Sequence record: NC_054918.1
From: Escherichia phage vB_EcoM_G4498
Length of the DNA stretch: 64,000 nucleotides
Direction: 5' to 3' (one strand)
The notes under the pieces are model-generated. The model made no database searches. It had not been told where the DNA came from and was given only the letters and a program-made list of their open reading frames with translations. Of this stretch, positions 14,348-52,989 are shown piece by piece. Both the position numbers and the translations under genes were made by a program. Position 1 is the first letter of the stretch, and every line of letters starts with the position of its first letter.

Positions 14348-14664
14348 CTAGAATCACAAGAACTTCCGCATGAATCACCTGCCCATACATGAACAGGAAC
14401 ATTAGTGTCATATGAATCAGAACTAGACTGTGTATTCTGTGTGTTAGATGATGTAGTAGGTACTGACCATCGCCAAGGATTTTTATAATATTCTTGGGCT
14501 TCTTCATAAGTCATAGTAACTGCTTCTACTGTTCCATCTCCCATATAAACATACTCAACTACAGTTAAAGGAAGGTAGTCATTTGAAATAGGAACTACAC
14601 CTTCTCCCGGAGTTGTAGAGAAAAAATCTGTAAAGAAATTTTTAAACCAATTAAAGATAAACAT
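14323..14664 (-). CDS. hypothetical protein with Cys/Ser-rich C-terminus
   Basis: 113 aa ending [15 protein letters not shown]. Confidence 0.5.
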
Positions 14665-14870
14665 TACAAAAAGCCTCTTTTGAATTCGACTTGCTTCTCA
14701 CCATAATCATATCGAATCTCTGCATTAAATTCGACAGAACCATCTGCGTACATCATAAATGAATGAACAACAACTTCTGTAGACCATGGTTGCAGTTCAT
14801 ATTTCTTCATTACATGCCGTGAAATGATAATATCTAAATCTTCATTTGGTTTAATCCAACGATTTAACAT
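14664..14870 (-). CDS. small hypothetical protein
   Basis: 68-aa ORF directly downstream of an early promoter. Confidence 0.5.
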   Translation of the reverse strand: MLNRWIKPNEDLDIIISRHVMKKYELQPWSTEVVVHSFMMYADGSVEFNAEIRYDYGEKQVEFKRGFL

Positions 14871-14895
14871 AGTGCTCTCCTCTATAAGATAATTC

Positions 14896-14927
14896 TATTA
14901 TACCATACTCATTTTGGAAAGTAAACC
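14896..14927 (-). promoter_or_regulatory. early promoter
   Basis: Minus strand GTTTAC-N17-TGGTATAAT. Confidence 0.7.
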
Positions 14928-14941
14928 GTTTAAATGAAAAA

Positions 14942-14961
14942 AGGACTCCCGAAGGAGTCCT
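14942..14961 (-). terminator. rho-independent terminator after soc
   Basis: AGGACTCC-cgaa-GGAGTCCT hairpin followed by a U-run on the minus-strand transcript. Confidence 0.7.
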
Positions 14962-14966
14962 TGAAT

Positions 14967-15212
14967 TTATTCACCAGTTACTTTCCACAAATCTTCATTT
15001 GCAGCAATCCATTCAGTACGTTGATTTTCTTCATATACTGTAGAATATGCTGCTTTTTCTGAAGGGAATGTCTGGTAATGTGCACCAGAAATTTTGTGAA
15101 CGTCAGAATAAAGAGGGAAAGCTACGGAAATTTCCTTTCCTTCAATTTTCTTATTTCCATCTAATTTCTGCTCAAATGTTTTGATATTAACATAACCGCG
15201 AGTACTAGCCAT
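14967..15212 (-). CDS. soc: small outer capsid protein Soc
   Basis: 81-aa ORF MASTRGYVNIKTFEQK... matches T4 Soc as I remember it. Confidence 0.9.
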   Translation of the reverse strand: MASTRGYVNIKTFEQKLDGNKKIEGKEISVAFPLYSDVHKISGAHYQTFPSEKAAYSTVYEENQRTEWIAANEDLWKVTGE

Positions 15213-15242
15213 GTAATTCTCCTTTTATTTAAATTACATGAT

Positions 15243-15250
15243 TATTTATA
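15243..15250 (-). promoter_or_regulatory. late promoter (TATAAATA) for soc
   Basis: Minus strand TATAAATA about 30 nt upstream of the soc ATG. Confidence 0.65.
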
Positions 15251-15280
15251 ATAAATTCTCGCGGCTTTTAAGACGAGCTG

Positions 15281-15799
15281 TTAATAACCTCGGTCTTGAC
15301 GAGCGAAATTTTCAGCATTTTTCAGATAATAAAGTTTAAAGATTTCTTCTGCTGTAAGACCAAGACCTTGAAACATGTTCAGAACAAAATGGAGAATATC
15401 AATCATTTCGAATTTGATTTCTAACTGGTCCTGTGGAGACAAATCAGTAATCAGAGTTTCACGACGTTCACCATGCTGAGCTTTCCACGGCTTCCATACA
15501 GCAGATGCATCTTTTTCGCCATTACTCATACCACCAAGAGAAGTCAGAAGTTCGCGGAATTCATCATCAATATAATCTTTCTGATTACGCAGCCAATCAA
15601 CAACTTCACCTGCAGTAGCCAAATCATCAGGATGACGGTTATATTCAGGTTTATCTTTAGCTAAACGAACTTGCAGAGATTTCTGCATATCAAGCATTAC
15701 CTGCAGCGGGTCTTTTTCATCACCGAGAATATCCCAATATTCATTTTGAGCTTTATCAGCGCCTTCGATCAGTTGACTACATTCGTTGAAATGTGGCAT
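15281..15799 (-). CDS. 56: dCTP pyrophosphatase (dCTPase/dUTPase, MazG-like)
   Basis: 172 aa; size and position of T4 gp56. Confidence 0.8.
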   Translation of the reverse strand: MPHFNECSQLIEGADKAQNEYWDILGDEKDPLQVMLDMQKSLQVRLAKDKPEYNRHPDDLATAGEVVDWLRNQKDYIDDEFRELLTSLGGMSNGEKDASAVWKPWKAQHGERRETLITDLSPQDQLEIKFEMIDILHFVLNMFQGLGLTAEEIFKLYYLKNAENFARQDRGY

Positions 15800-21132: not shown

Positions 21133-21501
21133 TTAAAAGAATTTAAATTTTTTCTTTGACCTTTTATTAAATGCATCTTGTAGTTGCATTGTAATACATT
21201 TTTCTACATGAGGAGCTAACTCAGCTTTTCTTTCTTGGTCAAGAACAGCAAAGTCCATTACAACCTTTCCATCAACCCAATCCAGTTTAGTTACATACAC
21301 TATATGTGTAGAACCATCTTCTAGTTTAATGACAATCTCCTGGATAACATTTTCCATAGCGGATTTAATTATCTTAAGAGACTCATTAAAAAGACGTTCT
21401 TTTCTTTCTTCTTCCCCCTCCGAAGAGGGGGATTCATCGATAATTTCTAGATCTAAATCTAAATCTAAATCATCTTTATTCATTAAATTCTTCCATATCA
21501 C
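21133..21501 (-). CDS. hypothetical acidic protein (gene 40 position)
   Basis: 122-aa ORF between uvsX and 41; contains DLDLDLDLE repeat; assignment by synteny only. Confidence 0.45.
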   Translation of the reverse strand: MIWKNLMNKDDLDLDLDLEIIDESPSSEGEEERKERLFNESLKIIKSAMENVIQEIVIKLEDGSTHIVYVTKLDWVDGKVVMDFAVLDQERKAELAPHVEKCITMQLQDAFNKRSKKKFKFF

Positions 21502-22657
21502 TTAACTGTTCGAGGTCAGTTTCTAAATCAGCAGCTGATTTACTTTTACTTTCTGGAGATTTAAATTTTTCAACCTTTGAGTTAATCAATTCATCAACTT
21601 CAGCTTCAACAATTTCATTGCTATCAATAGCACCTAACTGATAAGCACGTTTAATAGCATCTCGGAATGGTTGATGCTTAAATAAAGGACCCCAGAATGT
21701 AGTGCAGTTGGTATCTTTTGCACGCCAAGATTTTTCTTCGCGAATCATCTCACCGGTTTCTTCATCAAGAAATTCACGAGCATACCAACCGTTCTTAGGT
21801 TTTACCACGAATCCTAATTCTAGAGCCATATCTAACAATCCAGAATAAGGATCGATACCACCGTCAAATTTAACATCAATAAAGAATTTACTTTTTTCTT
21901 TAACGGTACGAGATTTTTCTACATTTAGAACAAATTGATACCCCTGAAGATCAGAACCATCTTTAATCTGGCGCTTACCGATAATGAATACGGTATCAGC
22001 TGAATACATTACGCCTGTACCACCTGTCATCACGGTTTTACTAAACATTTCAATTGTTTCAATTGTATGGTTAACCGCAACGCACGGAATATTTTTAATG
22101 CTAAAATAAGGAGTAACAATACGGAATAATGACTTCAGTGATTTAGCACGAGTCATATCTGCCACAGATTTTTCATTCAAGGCATCTTCCGTTTCTTTCT
22201 TAGAAGCCATATTACCGATTGAGTCGATGAATACAATAACCTTTTCACCACGCTCAATAGCTTCAAGCTGGTTCACCATATCAATTTTCAGTTGTTCAAC
22301 TGACTGAATCGGCGTATGAATTACTCGTTCCGGGTCAACTCCCATGGATCGCAAATAAGCTGGAGTAATACCAAATTCACTATCATAGAATAGACAAACC
22401 GCGTCAGGATATTTGTTCAAATATGCCGCAACCATAGTCAAAGACATATTTGATTTAAAGTGTTTAGAAGGCCCTGCGAAAATAGTTAAACCAGACTGCA
22501 TACCGCCATCAATCGCACCAGAAATAGCAATATTAAGCATTGGAATTTTTGTACGAATTACATCCTTTTCATTAAAGAATTTAGATGTAGTCAGTTCAGC
22601 AGTCATTTTAGAAGTGGAAGCTTTAATCAAACGGGATTTTAAATCTGCAATAGACAT
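21476..22657 (-). CDS. uvsX: UvsX RecA-like recombinase
   Basis: 393 aa; RecA-fold P-loop GPSKHFKS; size and position of T4 UvsX. Confidence 0.9.
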   Translation of the reverse strand: MSIADLKSRLIKASTSKMTAELTTSKFFNEKDVIRTKIPMLNIAISGAIDGGMQSGLTIFAGPSKHFKSNMSLTMVAAYLNKYPDAVCLFYDSEFGITPAYLRSMGVDPERVIHTPIQSVEQLKIDMVNQLEAIERGEKVIVFIDSIGNMASKKETEDALNEKSVADMTRAKSLKSLFRIVTPYFSIKNIPCVAVNHTIETIEMFSKTVMTGGTGVMYSADTVFIIGKRQIKDGSDLQGYQFVLNVEKSRTVKEKSKFFIDVKFDGGIDPYSGLLDMALELGFVVKPKNGWYAREFLDEETGEMIREEKSWRAKDTNCTTFWGPLFKHQPFRDAIKRAYQLGAIDSNEIVEAEVDELINSKVEKFKSPESKSKSAADLETDLEQLSDMEEFNE

Positions 22658-45943: not shown

Positions 45944-46345
45944 TTATTCCTTAATTCCTAGTACTTGTTTAAAAGTCTCGTCGTAATCAAGACTTTGGCC
46001 CGTTTGTTCTTTATGTTTGTATATAATATCACTTACTTCTGATAGCATATTTTTATATGAACGAGTTAAAGCAGATTTAAGCACGCTGTATCTATCAGGA
46101 AATTTACCATGTTCATTATAATAAGCTATTGCTAATTCACGGACTGCCTTTTCAGCAGCCTCCATATATTCTTTACGCTTGGTCATTTTCTTCTCGGTCA
46201 AATCGGTGTTTACAATGGCGACATTTATAACGAAGATTACTAGTCTGCCAATGGACCAATTGCACCTGTTCAGTTCCACATTCAGGGCAATTAGGAACGT
46301 TTTTAGAAGCACGTTCGCGACGTTCAACCATAACCATAATGGCAT
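45944..46345 (-). CDS. hypothetical protein (start uncertain)
   Basis: ORF track gives 133 aa but its 5' part overlaps the next gene; an internal Met ([13 protein letters not shown]...) is the likely start. Confidence 0.4.
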
Positions 46346-46490
46346 CCCAAGCAGGAGGTTTAAAGTCTAAATCGTCACAACCATGAATCTTTCCACGCAT
46401 TTCCAAATCGTCTTCTTCACCAGCCATAATAATTTTAATTAGACTAGAATTACTTGAAGCTGCAATGTCTTCTAATAGACGCTTTTTCAT
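46173..46490 (-). CDS. zinc-ribbon hypothetical protein
   Basis: 105 aa with CPECG...CRHCKH. Confidence 0.5.
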
Positions 46491-47416
46491 TTCAATACCT
46501 CAATAGCATTACGTAAACCATTTGCTTTTGCATTAAGAGCTTTTAACAATTTGGTGTGTTCTGCAATTTGGGCTTCAACTTCAATCAAACGAGCATTGAG
46601 ATATTCGCGTTCTTCACTCAGATTATCAACCTTTTCTACTTTAGGCTCTTTTACAACTGTCTTATATGTATTAGGGTTCTTCAGTTTAATTAGAATGCGT
46701 GAACTGTATAACATTGAACCATTATTTTCGGTTTCGTCATACATTTCTACTACATCCATAATTTTTAACATCATGCGGAGTTTATAAGACAACGAACGAA
46801 TAGTTTTGTTGTGCTTATTAATTTCTTTAGCTGTCATGGTGCCGAGATTACGTGAGTAATAATAAGGAACCTGGATATTAATTAATACTGATGAACCACC
46901 TGGCTTGTGTGTTACTTCATCAGCAATAACCCAGTCCTTAACATGAACTGTATTTGTACGGTCATCACCCGCGGTAAACAGTTTGCGAGCATGCTTAAAA
47001 AGCATATTCACTTGGTCATTGAATTGACAAGCAAATTTATCAGCAAATTTAGTTTCAGGAATGGTAGATAACCAATCAGCCAAATGGGTCTTTTTAACAT
47101 CGTTAACAATAGTAAATTCAACCAAATCGGTTATAGATGTCGCAGATTTAACAAAGTTCGGCTTCATAAAGTTTTTAATGTTATCGTGAGCTACAGTAGA
47201 AGATAACATACGAGAACGTTTAAACCATTCAAGCAAATTGCCTAACGAATGAGAATAAGCGTTTTGAGTATCTTTACAGATATGATTTTCCTGGCTAACA
47301 TATTGAAGGAAATCACGAAGAATATTATTGATTACTGCTCTGTGTCCGATCTGATAATTACGATGTTTAGTAATAAGACTGTCAAAATAATCAATATAAT
47401 GTTTACGAGTTTTCAT
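46487..47416 (-). CDS. hypothetical protein with C-terminal coiled coil
   Basis: 309-aa ORF; C-terminus [42 protein letters not shown]. Confidence 0.55.
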   Translation of the reverse strand: MKTRKHYIDYFDSLITKHRNYQIGHRAVINNILRDFLQYVSQENHICKDTQNAYSHSLGNLLEWFKRSRMLSSTVAHDNIKNFMKPNFVKSATSITDLVEFTIVNDVKKTHLADWLSTIPETKFADKFACQFNDQVNMLFKHARKLFTAGDDRTNTVHVKDWVIADEVTHKPGGSSVLINIQVPYYYSRNLGTMTAKEINKHNKTIRSLSYKLRMMLKIMDVVEMYDETENNGSMLYSSRILIKLKNPNTYKTVVKEPKVEKVDNLSEEREYLNARLIEVEAQIAEHTKLLKALNAKANGLRNAIEVLK

Positions 47417-47470
47417 GTTCTTCTCACTTGGTTAATGATTTATACTCCGAGCCATCCTTGGCTTTAAATT

Positions 47471-48472
47471 TTACTTAATTAACTGTAAAGCCTGTTCTAA
47501 ACGATCAAGACGATTAACAGATTCTTCCCAAATCCTTTTAGCCTGCTCATATTCTTTCTGCGCTTTATTAGAAATTTCTAGAACTTCTTTATAAGCTTTT
47601 TCTAATGCAATAACTTCTGGACGAATTTCTACCTGTTCAGGTGAATCATCAAGACATTCCATTAGTTCCTCAAGGGTAGTTTCTTCTTTAGGAGTATTCA
47701 CAATTTCATCACATTTTTGTTGGTAAATTTCTTTATTAGTCGGTGAGTACGCACACTTTACTTCACGAAGACTAATTATAATTTTATATCCTTCCCATCC
47801 ACACATATTTTTGAAAGGATATGTATGAATACTTTTTACAGTTTCCATACAGCCCAAAGCCGTCTCTAATTGATGAGTTATAGTGCTAGCAATTGAGAAA
47901 AATTTATTAATGTTCTTTTGATTAGCTGCTGGTGTAAAAAATCCATAATTCACAAAAATAGCTACTTTATTTTTATCAAGCTCATATTCTTTTACGATAA
48001 TCATATCAGAAGCCAAAGGATGAATTTGACGATAATCGCCATAACATAATTTAGAAGCTGATTTTAGAATTTGTCCTTTGAAAAGTCTGAAATTACTAAT
48101 CCAACGACGAGTAAAAATATTCTCAGGGTCTTCTTTGATATTAAGATGATAAGAATTAACATCACCGAACCAATTATATCCTACTACATCTTTGGTTCGT
48201 TTAATTTCTTTCCCAAAATTACCAAGAATATCCCGATTAACCAAATATGAAAGAAGACGAGATCCTTTAAAGGTTTTCTTAATGGCATCTTTATTTGTAC
48301 GACTAGAAATTTCATGAACTTCATGAATAAATTTGCCGGAAGAAACAATACTTGCATCAATATTATTGAGCCATTGATTGATAATAGAAAGAACACTATT
48401 TTGGCCAAACAGCGGTATAACTTTATCATCAATAACGCTATTGAATGATTTGATATATTCGTTACGAGTCAT
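47471..48472 (-). CDS. hypothetical protein with C-terminal coiled coil
   Basis: Track start 48502 lies on the promoter -10; ATG at 48472 (MTRNEYIKSF...) with SD GAGGAG is likely, giving 333 aa. Confidence 0.55.
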   Translation of the reverse strand: MTRNEYIKSFNSVIDDKVIPLFGQNSVLSIINQWLNNIDASIVSSGKFIHEVHEISSRTNKDAIKKTFKGSRLLSYLVNRDILGNFGKEIKRTKDVVGYNWFGDVNSYHLNIKEDPENIFTRRWISNFRLFKGQILKSASKLCYGDYRQIHPLASDMIIVKEYELDKNKVAIFVNYGFFTPAANQKNINKFFSIASTITHQLETALGCMETVKSIHTYPFKNMCGWEGYKIIISLREVKCAYSPTNKEIYQQKCDEIVNTPKEETTLEELMECLDDSPEQVEIRPEVIALEKAYKEVLEISNKAQKEYEQAKRIWEESVNRLDRLEQALQLIK

Positions 48473-48498
48473 ATTAATCTCCTCAGTAGAAAGTAAGA

Positions 48499-48530
48499 AC
48501 ATTATACCACATCCTTGTGGCGAAGTAAAC
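48499..48530 (-). promoter_or_regulatory. early promoter
   Basis: Minus strand GTTTAC-N17-TGGTATAAT. Confidence 0.7.
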
Positions 48531-49549
48531 TAGTTCAGTGCATTTAGTGCGTTGTTCAGTTTAGAACGTTGCTTCGTGAGATTTTTGACTTTTTCTTGAG
48601 CTTTTTCTAGCATCTTTTCAGCTTCTAGCACTTCATTGGTCGCTTTAACGAGTTCATCATCTACTGCCTTGATAGACTTCTCAATCGCATCCGCGTGCCA
48701 TTTTTCAACAGGTTTAAGACTCGGATTTTCAATAGGAAGAAAATTCACTTTATTGAATTTCCATGCATCTTTATTGCCTGAACTATACATCCAAAATTTA
48801 GGATCGTTTGATGAGTAATTAGATAAATTTAAGTTATCTTGCACTTCTTGCTTTTTCTCTTGCGGGACTTCATCCTTTCTCAAAAAATCGTATTTAAATG
48901 AAACGATCATATCAAGTTCATATGTTGTTGTATGTTCCCAATTTCGCTCAAAACGAGGTAAAATCTTAGAATGAACAGCGGCAACAACATCCATATACTT
49001 AAATGCTTCTGTCAACTGCGATTTAAGGCATTCGCAAATTGAAAGAGAATTTTTTGTATTAGGTTTAAAGCTAATTCGTGCAGTTCTATTATTTTCTTTT
49101 AATGGTCTTACTTCCATCTGAAGAGTATAACCATCAAATTTCAGGTTCTTTAAGTTAATGTCAGAACCTTTTAATCGACTAGCCGTCGACAAAATTTGCT
49201 TTAATTGTTTACGGAATAGAGCAATAAATCTCCATTCAATACGATAATGATTTGGATTGAAAAATCCAGATGATAAATCGACCTTACTCTGACCAACACC
49301 TTGAACAAACAGAGGATTTTTATAATCAATAGTTTTACAGAAATCGGTGAGCTGCTCACGAGCAGTCATTTGTGTAATATACCCCGCTTTACTAAAATGA
49401 CGTAACCATTCACTGCTATTCATATATTTAAAGTGAATATCACGATTAACTTTATCAGGGTCTAAATTATTTTGGCACAAAAATGTCATAACATCACGAG
49501 TATAGCTGGCATTACGAACCATATCTTCAATTTGAGAACGAGTTTTCAT
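48530..49549 (-). CDS. hypothetical protein with C-terminal coiled coil
   Basis: 339-aa ORF. Confidence 0.55.
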   Translation of the reverse strand: MKTRSQIEDMVRNASYTRDVMTFLCQNNLDPDKVNRDIHFKYMNSSEWLRHFSKAGYITQMTAREQLTDFCKTIDYKNPLFVQGVGQSKVDLSSGFFNPNHYRIEWRFIALFRKQLKQILSTASRLKGSDINLKNLKFDGYTLQMEVRPLKENNRTARISFKPNTKNSLSICECLKSQLTEAFKYMDVVAAVHSKILPRFERNWEHTTTYELDMIVSFKYDFLRKDEVPQEKKQEVQDNLNLSNYSSNDPKFWMYSSGNKDAWKFNKVNFLPIENPSLKPVEKWHADAIEKSIKAVDDELVKATNEVLEAEKMLEKAQEKVKNLTKQRSKLNNALNALN

Positions 49550-49557
49550 GGTGTTCC

Positions 49558-50466
49558 TTAAGATTTAAGTAAATCAACAATTTTAATTAACTTTTCACGC
49601 TCAGATTTAGCTTTACTACTCAATCCAGATAGTCTGAAAATTTCATCGTCATACTGTTGAATAGAAATATTCAGCTCTTCAATTTGCTTATTAAAATAAT
49701 CAATTTGCTCAGAATGTTTTTCATTACTGCGAACTGGTACAGGTTTTGTAGGCAATTTAGTTAAACTGGATTCATCCGGGCGATAAATTAAAATACAACT
49801 TGAACCAATCGGGCATTTAGCACCAGACACATATTCTAATGTTCCGGCTTCTTTTAAAACTTCAAAAGCTAAACAGAGATGATGCCCCATATTAACATAA
49901 TCTGTAGAGCGAGCTCTGACGTAATAATCATCGCCGCGAATACTAAATTTAAAGCATTTAAGGTCTTCTGTATTATTGGTCTTAAAAATCATTTGTTTAT
50001 CTAGACCTTTAGCTAATCGAGCGCCTAATGCTAATAATCGTCGTTGATTTTCCCACAAATCTGCGATCATTTGGTCAAATGATAATTTCGGCATTAGTCG
50101 ACCGTAAAGATCATAGCCTTTATTATAATTGCGAAGAATTTCACTTGCATTAATACGAGACAATGCTCCAATTTTATTAAGGGCTTTCATAATGCGATTA
50201 GATAAACCCATTCCAGACCCGTTTGTTCGCTGTAAATGTTTTTCTAATCCAAATCCAATATCAACTTTAAACTTATCTAAAATTTCTGCATGAACATCTC
50301 TGTCAATAACATTCAAATCCAAAGTTGGGTTAAATCTATGAAAAAATTTATCTGGCTCTCCACGACGAAGTACAGTCCATTCATTCAATTTTTTATTAAC
50401 TAAAGATTTAATTACTGCATTGACATTATTAATTACTACTGACATATTTTCCTCACTCAATTTCAA
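49558..50466 (-). CDS. hypothetical protein with C-terminal coiled coil
   Basis: 302-aa ORF. Confidence 0.55.
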   Translation of the reverse strand: MKLSEENMSVVINNVNAVIKSLVNKKLNEWTVLRRGEPDKFFHRFNPTLDLNVIDRDVHAEILDKFKVDIGFGLEKHLQRTNGSGMGLSNRIMKALNKIGALSRINASEILRNYNKGYDLYGRLMPKLSFDQMIADLWENQRRLLALGARLAKGLDKQMIFKTNNTEDLKCFKFSIRGDDYYVRARSTDYVNMGHHLCLAFEVLKEAGTLEYVSGAKCPIGSSCILIYRPDESSLTKLPTKPVPVRSNEKHSEQIDYFNKQIEELNISIQQYDDEIFRLSGLSSKAKSEREKLIKIVDLLKS

Positions 50467-50915: not shown

Positions 50916-51443
50916 TTATGCGAGTACCGTCTTTAACCGTTCTTCAAACTTCCGAAGAGTATTTTGGCGTTCAGCTCTTTGCTTTTTGTAAGTTTCAATA
51001 CGCTCTGAAATGAGAGTGTATCGTTCATTTACTGATTCTTTCATAAAATCAGGAATTTCACGAGAAGCTTTAATCTCGTCAAATTTATCAATAACAGCTT
51101 GCTCTTCAGCAATTAAGTTATCATACATCAAAATATCTTTCTTGATGAACTCAATATCTTCTTGAGTTACACGAGATAATTTAGATGCTTTATCCTTTTT
51201 GTACTGTTCGTTAGTATCACGAGACCAGTGTAATGTACGATTTTTATTCATATTCTTGTAAATTTCTACAATACCAATCTCATCGATAATAACGATCCAA
51301 TTCCAACGGGATTTGTAAATTTGTCCTCCATCAACAGTGATTTCACCTCCGATTGAGATGTCATTAAAGAACTTGCTTTGTGCTTCAGATTTAAATTTAC
51401 CATCATTGTAGTTTACCAAGTTGAAAATATCTTTAGCATTCAT
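50916..51443 (-). CDS. hypothetical protein
   Basis: Track start 51503 reads through the promoter; ATG at 51443 (MNAKDIFNLV...) with SD GGAGGA gives 175 aa. Confidence 0.55.
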   Translation of the reverse strand: MNAKDIFNLVNYNDGKFKSEAQSKFFNDISIGGEITVDGGQIYKSRWNWIVIIDEIGIVEIYKNMNKNRTLHWSRDTNEQYKKDKASKLSRVTQEDIEFIKKDILMYDNLIAEEQAVIDKFDEIKASREIPDFMKESVNERYTLISERIETYKKQRAERQNTLRKFEERLKTVLA

Positions 51444-52942: not shown

Positions 52943-52970
52943 CTTTGTGAAAAAATTTTGAAATAAAAAA

Positions 52971-52989
52971 GGGAGCCCGAAGGCTCCCT
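52971..52989 (-). terminator. rho-independent terminator
   Basis: GGGAGCC-uucg-GGCUCCC followed by UUUUUUAUUU on the minus-strand transcript. Confidence 0.7.

Follow-up and report, generated by a model that had tools for sequence, protein, structure and literature searches.

Are the tandem genes nrdC.3 to nrdC.6 of T4-like phages one fast-evolving family, and might they form a counter-defence array?

T4 is the best-studied lytic phage, and a function is still lacking for most of its early accessory genes. A block of four consecutive genes in Escherichia phage vB_EcoM_G4498, nrdC.3, nrdC.4, nrdC.5 and nrdC.6, raises the question whether neighbours that hardly resemble each other by eye can belong to one protein family and, if so, what such a family might be used for. 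The block occupies positions 46487-50466 (3,980 bp) of a stretch of 64,000 nucleotides of this genome (NC_054918.1), which is called the window in the following and provides the numbering for all coordinates given here. Our analysis leads us to lean towards the view that the block consists of four tandem, early-transcribed and dispensable paralogs of one fast-evolving family which act as a counter-defence array.

The window is part of a Tequatrovirus (T4-like) genome, the block being 98.6% identical at the DNA level to Escherichia phage vB-Eco-KMB39. Matches to the block were found in 655 phage records, and in 461 of them a single match covers at least 80% of its length. All four open reading frames (ORFs) listed in a preliminary description of this DNA were found on the minus strand, and the comparison with annotated Tequatrovirus relatives as well as a gene-by-gene correspondence with T4 (NC_000866) identified them as T4 nrdC.3, nrdC.4, nrdC.5 and nrdC.6. 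They are flanked by nrdC, nrdC.1 and nrdC.2 on one side and by nrdC.7-nrdC.11 on the other. The only correction concerns the start of nrdC.6, which is placed at the ATG at 50445 instead of the TTG at 50466.

46487..47416, minus strand: nrdC.3, 309 amino acids (aa), family member with a hypervariable allele
47471..48472, minus strand: nrdC.4, 333 aa, family member
48530..49549, minus strand: nrdC.5, 339 aa, Pfam DUF7235
49558..50445, minus strand: nrdC.6, 295 aa from the conserved ATG, most divergent (probable) family member

In detail, the mechanically called nrdC.6 ORF (49558-50466) opens at TTG and encodes 302 aa. The conserved nrdC.6 sequence starts at the ATG at 50445 in 31 of 31 homologues (alignment A2), and GenBank annotates the same start.

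nrdC.3, nrdC.4 and nrdC.5 share a common ancestor. The relationship is most direct for nrdC.3 and nrdC.4, which find each other by BLASTP (2e-7) as well as by hhalign (probability 98.4%, and 98.6% after removal of the C-terminal tails) and which belong to a single PHROG, both matching the full-length hidden Markov model of phrog_1435 (E 2.6e-115 for nrdC.3 and 4.2e-166 for nrdC.4). Their core helix motifs are 'FACQFNDQVNMLFKHARKLFTAG' (nrdC.3, aa 124-150) and 'FTRRWISNFRLFKGQILKSASKLCYG' (nrdC.4, aa 120-145). Direct BLASTP searches of nrdC.5 or nrdC.6 against the remaining array proteins gave nothing significant, and the first, shallow profiles linked nrdC.5 to nrdC.3 and nrdC.4 with just 25-29% probability. 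At the same position, related coliphage loci taken from a viral-contig collection have a gene that resembles nrdC.5 but is very divergent (21-28% identity). The link between nrdC.4 and nrdC.5 became significant only once divergent orthologs from other genera were added to the profiles; hhalign then gave 86-90% (89.8%) over about 234 colinear columns, and 91% (E 1e-6) when the predicted coiled-coil tails were left out.

A joint nrdC.3/4/5 profile, run with HMMER exhaustively against 1.84 billion representative proteins, returned 21 proteins in total, and a nrdC.6-type sequence was absent among them. One of the 21, gp057 of Marfavirus F48 (P0234), matches nrdC.5 at 96-97% and nrdC.4 at 96% in hhalign, and nrdC.4 at 95% without the tails. 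Homology of the globular part, with tails excluded, is significant for nrdC.3, nrdC.4 and nrdC.5. The tandem family proposed in the preliminary description is borne out by these profile-profile alignments (98% for nrdC.3-nrdC.4, 90-91% for nrdC.4-nrdC.5), whereas nrdC.6 joins the other three more weakly, via bridging proteins, structural models, a shared motif and synteny.

The curated families are separate, and the relationship of the four is seen only at the profile-profile or structure level. nrdC.5 matches Pfam DUF7235 (PF23882) over its full length with 422 bits (E 1.8e-126), well beyond the gathering threshold of 30 bits; at this threshold nrdC.3, nrdC.4 and nrdC.6 have no DUF7235 match. 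The protein database family labels are PF26897 for nrdC.4 and PF26899 for nrdC.6, and nrdC.5 and nrdC.6 are assigned to phrog_2351 and phrog_2257.

The membership of nrdC.6 was approached through structure prediction and bridging sequences. In the AlphaFold2 model of nrdC.5 (predicted local distance difference test, pLDDT, 69) residues 4-127 form a helical N-terminal domain and residues 143-218 a beta-beta-alpha-beta-beta unit, from which a disordered linker (224-276) leads to the C-terminal helix (280-338). In the nrdC.6 model (pLDDT 76) the N-terminal domain is likewise helical. It leads into a helix pair ('FDQMIADLWENQRRLLALGARLAKG', residues 130-154, counted on the 302-aa ORF) and a beta-beta-alpha-beta-beta unit spanning 172-228, after which a linker connects to two C-terminal helices. 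Both models show the same order of elements and the same secondary-structure topology, and in both a kinked helix pair closes in (A/G)(S/A)RL.(K)G, the motif of this helix pair in the family being (I/L)(L/F)xxA(S/R)(R/K)L..G. The N-terminal parts, which had been described as different by eye, are therefore predicted to be strongly diverged versions of one architecture and not different domains.

nrdC.6 is judged to be probably related to the other three because five lines of evidence converge. Besides the architecture of the models, the 'ARL..G' helix pair is placed in one register by three independent weak alignments and by the superfamily profile, which itself matches nrdC.6 at 63% (E 7e-5) in the register that the models predict. 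A third line is the bridge provided by Enterobacter phage IME523 (Kanagawavirus): the nrdC.6 model finds its 335-aa protein in Foldseek with E 3e-7, IME523 gp085 aligns with nrdC.6 over the full length (hhalign 93%, E 3.5e-7), and P0234 matches gp085 in tblastn (2e-9 against 2.3 gigabases) and, without tails, in BLASTP (4e-6). The models of nrdC.5 and nrdC.6 also have significant Foldseek neighbours from other T4-like phages in common, namely Mineola (1e-6 and 3.6e-4), fHe-Yen9-01 gp111 (3.4e-5 for nrdC.5 and 2.6e-4 for nrdC.6) and Merlin (4.6e-5 for nrdC.5 and 1.5e-3 for nrdC.6). Finally, the terminal motif and the register of the nrdC.6 tail are the same as in the other three proteins.

Several results weigh against this assignment. 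Direct profile comparisons of nrdC.6 are not significant overall (P 0.005-0.09), the one with nrdC.5 giving just P 0.005-0.012; the match of IME523 gp085 to nrdC.6 falls to P 6e-4 over 32 columns without the tails; the template modelling (TM) scores from Foldseek are low (0.2-0.48); and the nrdC.5 model is of moderate quality, as its pLDDT indicates. Adding the AlphaFold secondary structure to hhalign for nrdC.5 and nrdC.6 left the secondary-structure score at 0, giving a colinear alignment with no statistical gain. nrdC.6 might then be non-homologous, its amphipathic C-terminal helix having arisen by convergence and its alpha/beta make-up being similar only in broad terms. Such a coincidence would, however, have to extend to the identical domain order, the terminal motif, the common register of the helix pair, the shared Foldseek neighbours and the similarity to an IME523 protein that is itself related in sequence to the nrdC.4/nrdC.5 branch. 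In addition, gp94 of Yersinia phage fHe-Yen9-01 resembles both nrdC.6 (hhalign 43%) and nrdC.3 (BLASTP 0.002). We therefore regard convergence as improbable; nrdC.6 probably shares ancestry with nrdC.3, nrdC.4 and nrdC.5, and we are fairly confident that it is a true member of the nrdC.3-6 superfamily.

Sequence searches against PDB, PADLOC and NCBIfam with the array proteins found nothing above threshold, and neither solved structures nor curated families offer a clue to the function of nrdC.3-nrdC.6. Two similarities remained below significance. The beta-beta-alpha-beta-beta unit of nrdC.5 (residues ~140-220; window ~48890-49130) shows Foldseek similarity to tail completion and tail terminator proteins of phages (E 4e-3 to 6e-2, not significant), and residues 30-86 of nrdC.3 (window ~47159-47329) give sub-threshold matches to a tyrosine recombinase N-terminal domain (Pfam E 0.017, NCBIfam E 5e-4).

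The second common feature of the four proteins is their C-terminus, which had been noticed as a heptad-rich segment at the end of each ORF.

46490..46633, minus strand: C-terminal heptad helix of nrdC.3, aa 262-309
47474..47620, minus strand: C-terminal heptad helix of nrdC.4, aa 285-333, ending in RLEQALQLIK
48533..48712, minus strand: C-terminal heptad helix of nrdC.5, aa 280-339, ending in KLNNALNALN
49561..49713, minus strand: C-terminal heptad segment of nrdC.6, aa 252-302 (302-aa numbering), ending in KLIKIVDLLKS

Heptads were scored with a home-made scorer over 28 residues, z-values being calculated against shuffles of the same protein. In all four proteins the best window lies at the C-terminus, starting at residue 259 in nrdC.3, 286 in nrdC.4, 311 in nrdC.5 and 252 in nrdC.6 (z = 2.6-4.9). 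When the 68 gene-like ORFs of the window with 100 aa or more are ranked by C-terminal score, the top five places are taken by nrdC.5, nrdC.8, nrdC.6, nrdC.3 and nrdC.4, five of six adjacent genes, with values of 16.4-20.0 as compared to a median of 6.25. The chance that the four named genes fall into the top five of 68 is 64/10,424,128 (~6e-6), a figure which follows a post hoc choice and is not an independent test. Each tail keeps one unbroken register over 48-60 residues (7-8.5 heptads) and all end in the same register, with hydrophobic residues at 86-88% of the a/d positions and at 19-29% of the others, which agrees with the earlier observation. AlphaFold2 predicts a single helix of 59 residues (280-338) for the nrdC.5 tail and two helices (252-278 and 284-301), with a break at SGLSS, for that of nrdC.6. 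The tails thus exceed the four continuous heptads with hydrophobic a/d positions that are asked of coiled-coil proteins, and those of nrdC.5 and nrdC.6 lie in predicted helices.

The proposal of a shared C-terminal module is upheld by the common register and by a terminal motif, L..[AIV][LIV]..[LI][KN] with one optional further residue, which forms the C-terminus of exactly 4 of 114 ORFs, namely nrdC.3-nrdC.6, and occurs 5 times overall in 19,503 residues. The definition of this motif is post hoc; distant relatives, e.g. P0234, P0232 and P0240, nevertheless have it as well. Within each of the four families the tail is among the best-conserved regions, and in nrdC.4 conservation of the final 13 residues reaches 82% in comparison with homologues from other genera whose overall identity is 31-53%.

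A similar tail is found in a nearby gene.

50916..51443, minus strand: nrdC.8, 175 aa, two genes upstream of the array, with a heptad-rich Lys/Glu helix at its end

nrdC.8 has the second-best C-terminal heptad score of the 68 ORFs, with 69% hydrophobic a/d positions, and is 98-99% conserved within Tequatrovirus, far above nrdC.3-nrdC.6. It was considered as a fifth family member and rejected, as homology to nrdC.3-nrdC.6 is undetectable by profile comparison and the heptad tail is all that it has in common with them.

The number of family members differs between genera. A single member of 315-335 aa is present in Marfavirus F48, Kanagawavirus IME523 and Jiaodavirus KP179, at the syntenic site between the nrdC.11 nucleotidyltransferase and nrdC; proteins of ~260 aa upstream of the single-copy members in these outgroup phages were considered as well and are unrelated to the family. 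Three members are present in the related coliphage loci that were examined, mostly nrdC.6-like, nrdC.5-like and nrdC.4-like, with a nrdC.3-like gene instead of nrdC.4 in one of them (locus L005), and Tequatrovirus has four. The family has expanded from one to three to four copies, and it was seen only in T4-like phages (Straboviridae and Marfavirus). Losses occur too. Natural deletions have created fusions of nrdC.5 with nrdC.3 (P0120) and of nrdC.5 with nrdC.4 (P0239), and in phage ACG-C40 nrdC.4 is missing entirely and nrdC.5 and nrdC.3 are missing for the most part. The ACG-C40 match that covers the nrdC.3 tail only was considered as a domain swap and rejected, since it is a deletion remnant in which a nrdC.5 stub is followed by the 3' end of nrdC.3. 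From these natural deletions and fusions we conclude that the array genes are dispensable and in flux.

Further variants were observed. Tegunavirus fHe-Yen9-01 (L028) carries at least two dispersed distant members outside a tandem array, gp94 (14459-15337) and gp111 (21382-22323), the latter lying between the nrdC.10 and nrdC.11 homologs. A protein of 173 aa (P0236) on a single metagenome contig of 803 bp (L027) combines an unrelated N-terminus of 120 aa, which matches no phage genome, with 53 residues identical to the end of nrdC.5. A genuine exchange of modules or a chimeric assembly could account for this protein, which is treated as unverified. In nrdC.6 of Shigella phage Sf25 (P0122, 378 aa) ~83 residues are tandemly duplicated. 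The duplicated part takes in a single strand and the helix of the beta-beta-alpha-beta-beta unit together with its last two strands, and continues through the linker into the beginning of the tail. The reference nrdC.6 of T4 (L023, NC_000866, 12067-12894) is annotated with 275 aa. Compared with window positions 49558-49720 it has a deletion of one nucleotide (GCTGAATATT to GCTG-ATATT) which shifts the frame in the C-terminal helix, and the T4 DNA 3' of the frameshift still codes for the conserved tail in another frame. The T4-type protein of 296 aa (P0125) represents 940 database sequences, and the frameshift is probably a sequencing error in the reference or a mutation of the laboratory strain.

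The array genes diverge considerably faster than their surroundings. Identity to T4 is 60% for nrdC.3, 91% for nrdC.4 and 93% for nrdC.5, most neighbours reaching 97-100%, and between genera the array genes are 21-51% identical as compared to 66-89% for the flanks. The most variable gene, nrdC.3, falls into allele classes of 95-99%, 74-77% and ~59-60% identity to the window. T4 and T2 carry the ~60% class, and a 77% allele is found in locus L005 of a more distant relative. The divergence is centred on the middle of the protein, leaving the initial 60 residues and the tail conserved. Gene-wide ratios of nonsynonymous to synonymous substitution rates (dN/dS) are 0.12-0.47 for nrdC.3, nrdC.4 and nrdC.5, and 0-0.09 for gene 49, nrdC and nrdC.8-nrdC.11. 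The adjoining nrdC.2 (46173-46490, minus strand, 105 aa, zinc-ribbon-like) shows 66-90% identity among Tequatroviruses, with synonymous divergence (dS) up to ~1. As nrdC.2 is variable as well, the divergence hotspot reaches one gene past nrdC.3.

What the family might do is suggested by one of its members. The available passages of a study by Srikant, Guegler and Laub (eLife 2022; PMC9391042) describe evolved T4 clones with compensatory deletions, one of which was unable to plate on ECOR17. Plating was restored by deletion of dsr1 in the host, plasmid-borne dsr1 protected MG1655 from this T4 deletion clone, and T4 nrdC.5 supplied in trans from a plasmid restored plating of the clone on Dsr1-carrying cells (PMC9391042). 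Dsr1 is a SIR2-domain defence protein whose sensor, common to Avs7, recognises the phage major capsid protein (PMC13581612). The nrdC.5 of the window occupies the same position as T4 NrdC.5 and is its ortholog, and judging from the 93% identity the counter-Dsr1 role is probably shared. The idea of an anti-defence array put forward in the preliminary description is accordingly supported in part, namely for nrdC.5 by the published effect of its T4 ortholog on infection of Dsr1 cells, whereas for nrdC.3, nrdC.4 and nrdC.6 such roles are inferred from kinship. In the literature searched, no later work on nrdC.5 or on nrdC.3, nrdC.4 and nrdC.6 was found. In the same passages nrdC.5 is treated as a single uncharacterised early gene, and paralogy, a coiled-coil tail and the protein architecture are not mentioned there (PMC9391042).

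Early expression is also suggested by a site within the block.

48501..48529, minus strand: promoter-like site of the early sigma-70 type (TTTACT, 17 nt, TG, TATAAT), a consensus match only, between the nrdC.5 stop and the nrdC.4 start

Going by its consensus, this putative promoter argues for early transcription and would also support 48472 as the start of nrdC.4.

In the proposed mechanism the array proteins would be made early in infection, and each paralog would bind and block its own target among the host immune proteins, or its own variant of a single one. Specificity would come from the variable globular part, i.e. the helical domain and the beta-beta-alpha-beta-beta unit, which would probably contact the host immune protein. 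The conserved C-terminal helix might oligomerise the inhibitor, resulting in multivalent binding to oligomeric defence proteins, or dock to a common partner. For nrdC.5 the simplest model is that the protein binds Dsr1 directly, at a time when the late capsid-protein trigger is not yet present. This would parallel DSAD1 of phage SPbeta, which inhibits the SIR2 defence protein DSR2, a defence-associated sirtuin NADase, reportedly by direct binding, and which serves here as a working model for NrdC.5; similarity of NrdC.5 to DSAD1 is not detectable. A bolder proposal, which we put forward only tentatively and hold to be rather doubtful, is that nrdC.3-nrdC.6 and their single-copy or dispersed relatives constitute a previously unrecognised superfamily of modular immune antagonists, in which each paralog would address its own host sensor (e.g. 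Dsr1 or Avs7-type capsid-protein sensors) through the globular part and the coiled coil would provide multivalency.

Two systems known from T-even phages offer comparisons. The dmd-tifA-adfA 'anti-TA island' of T4 is likewise a cluster of small, early, dispensable genes, each countering a host defence, and these genes are amplified or deleted through microhomology recombination, as described in PMC9391042. As far as described there, its genes are mutually unrelated, whereas nrdC.3-nrdC.6 arose by duplication of one family of 300-340-aa proteins. The T-even internal proteins IPI, IPII and IPIII are similar in design, their members sharing a module and differing in the hosts or defences on which they act; a short shared motif causes these accessory proteins to be packaged into the virion, and a contribution to overcoming host defences is described for at least IPI and IPIII. 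The IP motif directs virion packaging, in contrast to the C-terminal heptad helix of the nrdC proteins; there is no sequence relationship between the two groups, and packaging of the IPI/IPII/IPIII type is without evidence for the nrdC proteins.

A counter-defence array is not the only explanation for these findings, and some of them count against it. The functional evidence is limited to nrdC.5 and is genetic in kind, binding of Dsr1 by NrdC.5 being putative, and the coiled coil is predicted from our heptad score and from monomer models. Gene-wide dN/dS is below 1 everywhere, so the elevated rates could reflect relaxed constraint instead of positive selection, and nrdC.6, with a dN/dS of 0.05-0.13, is more constrained than the other three and fits a role in an arms race less well. 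The restriction of functional evidence to nrdC.5 and a dN/dS below 1 fit the possibility that nrdC.5 alone counters defence. In that case nrdC.3, nrdC.4 and nrdC.6 would be diverged paralogs that serve host takeover in other, accessory ways, or duplicates that decay as constraint is relaxed. The loss of members in natural isolates and the weak sub-threshold recombinase similarity of the nrdC.3 N-terminus point in the same direction. Decaying duplicates, however, would hardly persist as intact ORFs across hundreds of genomes, as seen from the 461 of 655 records mentioned above, with conserved tails and core motifs; and the deeply diverged yet intact allele classes of nrdC.3 across genera are typical of diversifying accessory genes and not of pseudogenes. 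A role restricted to nrdC.5 thus seems unlikely to us.

The four proteins might also be subunits of one hetero-oligomeric complex with a single function, held together by their matching C-terminal helices. A common heptad register and terminal motif, the strong conservation of the tail in each family and the adjacent, probably co-expressed genes are what such an assembly would lead one to expect. A fixed complex is, on the other hand, difficult to reconcile with copy numbers of one, three and four in different genera, with natural phages that have lost subsets of the array genes and with the frameshift in the nrdC.6 tail of the T4 reference. In addition, plasmid-borne nrdC.5 alone was enough to restore infection by the T4 deletion clone (PMC9391042), the available passages not stating which neighbours had been removed in that clone. 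The single complex is therefore disfavoured, and we consider it still less likely than a role restricted to nrdC.5. The array of counter-defence paralogs accordingly remains the reading that we prefer, with the anti-defence roles of nrdC.3, nrdC.4 and nrdC.6 inferred.

The genes themselves are long-annotated T4 ORFs, and one counter-defence role has been published. What is added here is modest, namely that the four form one family, nrdC.6 probably included, with a common predicted architecture and tail and with no structural relative detected among solved structures. If nrdC.3, nrdC.4 and nrdC.6 are paralogs of the sole known Dsr1 antagonist, they turn from 'hypothetical proteins' into specific counter-defence candidates that can be tested at once. 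The paralogy, if true, would also explain why divergence and deletions are concentrated at this place in T-even genomes, and the natural series of one, three and four copies with deeply diverged alleles would provide material on how inhibitors diversify through duplication.

The analysis also corrects a widespread annotation. Many phage GenBank records (among H1-H15) label nrdC.1-nrdC.11 as 'thioredoxin'. No thioredoxin-family match in Pfam or NCBIfam was obtained for nrdC.3-nrdC.6, and CxxC is absent in all four sequences; the product name is a mis-annotation that has spread from the locus name nrdC.N.

Just downstream of nrdC.11, a strong GC-rich hairpin (52970-52989, minus strand; 8 pairs, 6 of them G-C) is followed by a T-run and is likely, from its sequence, to be an intrinsic terminator. 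Another promoter-like site (52939-52911) follows the hairpin upstream of nrdC.10.

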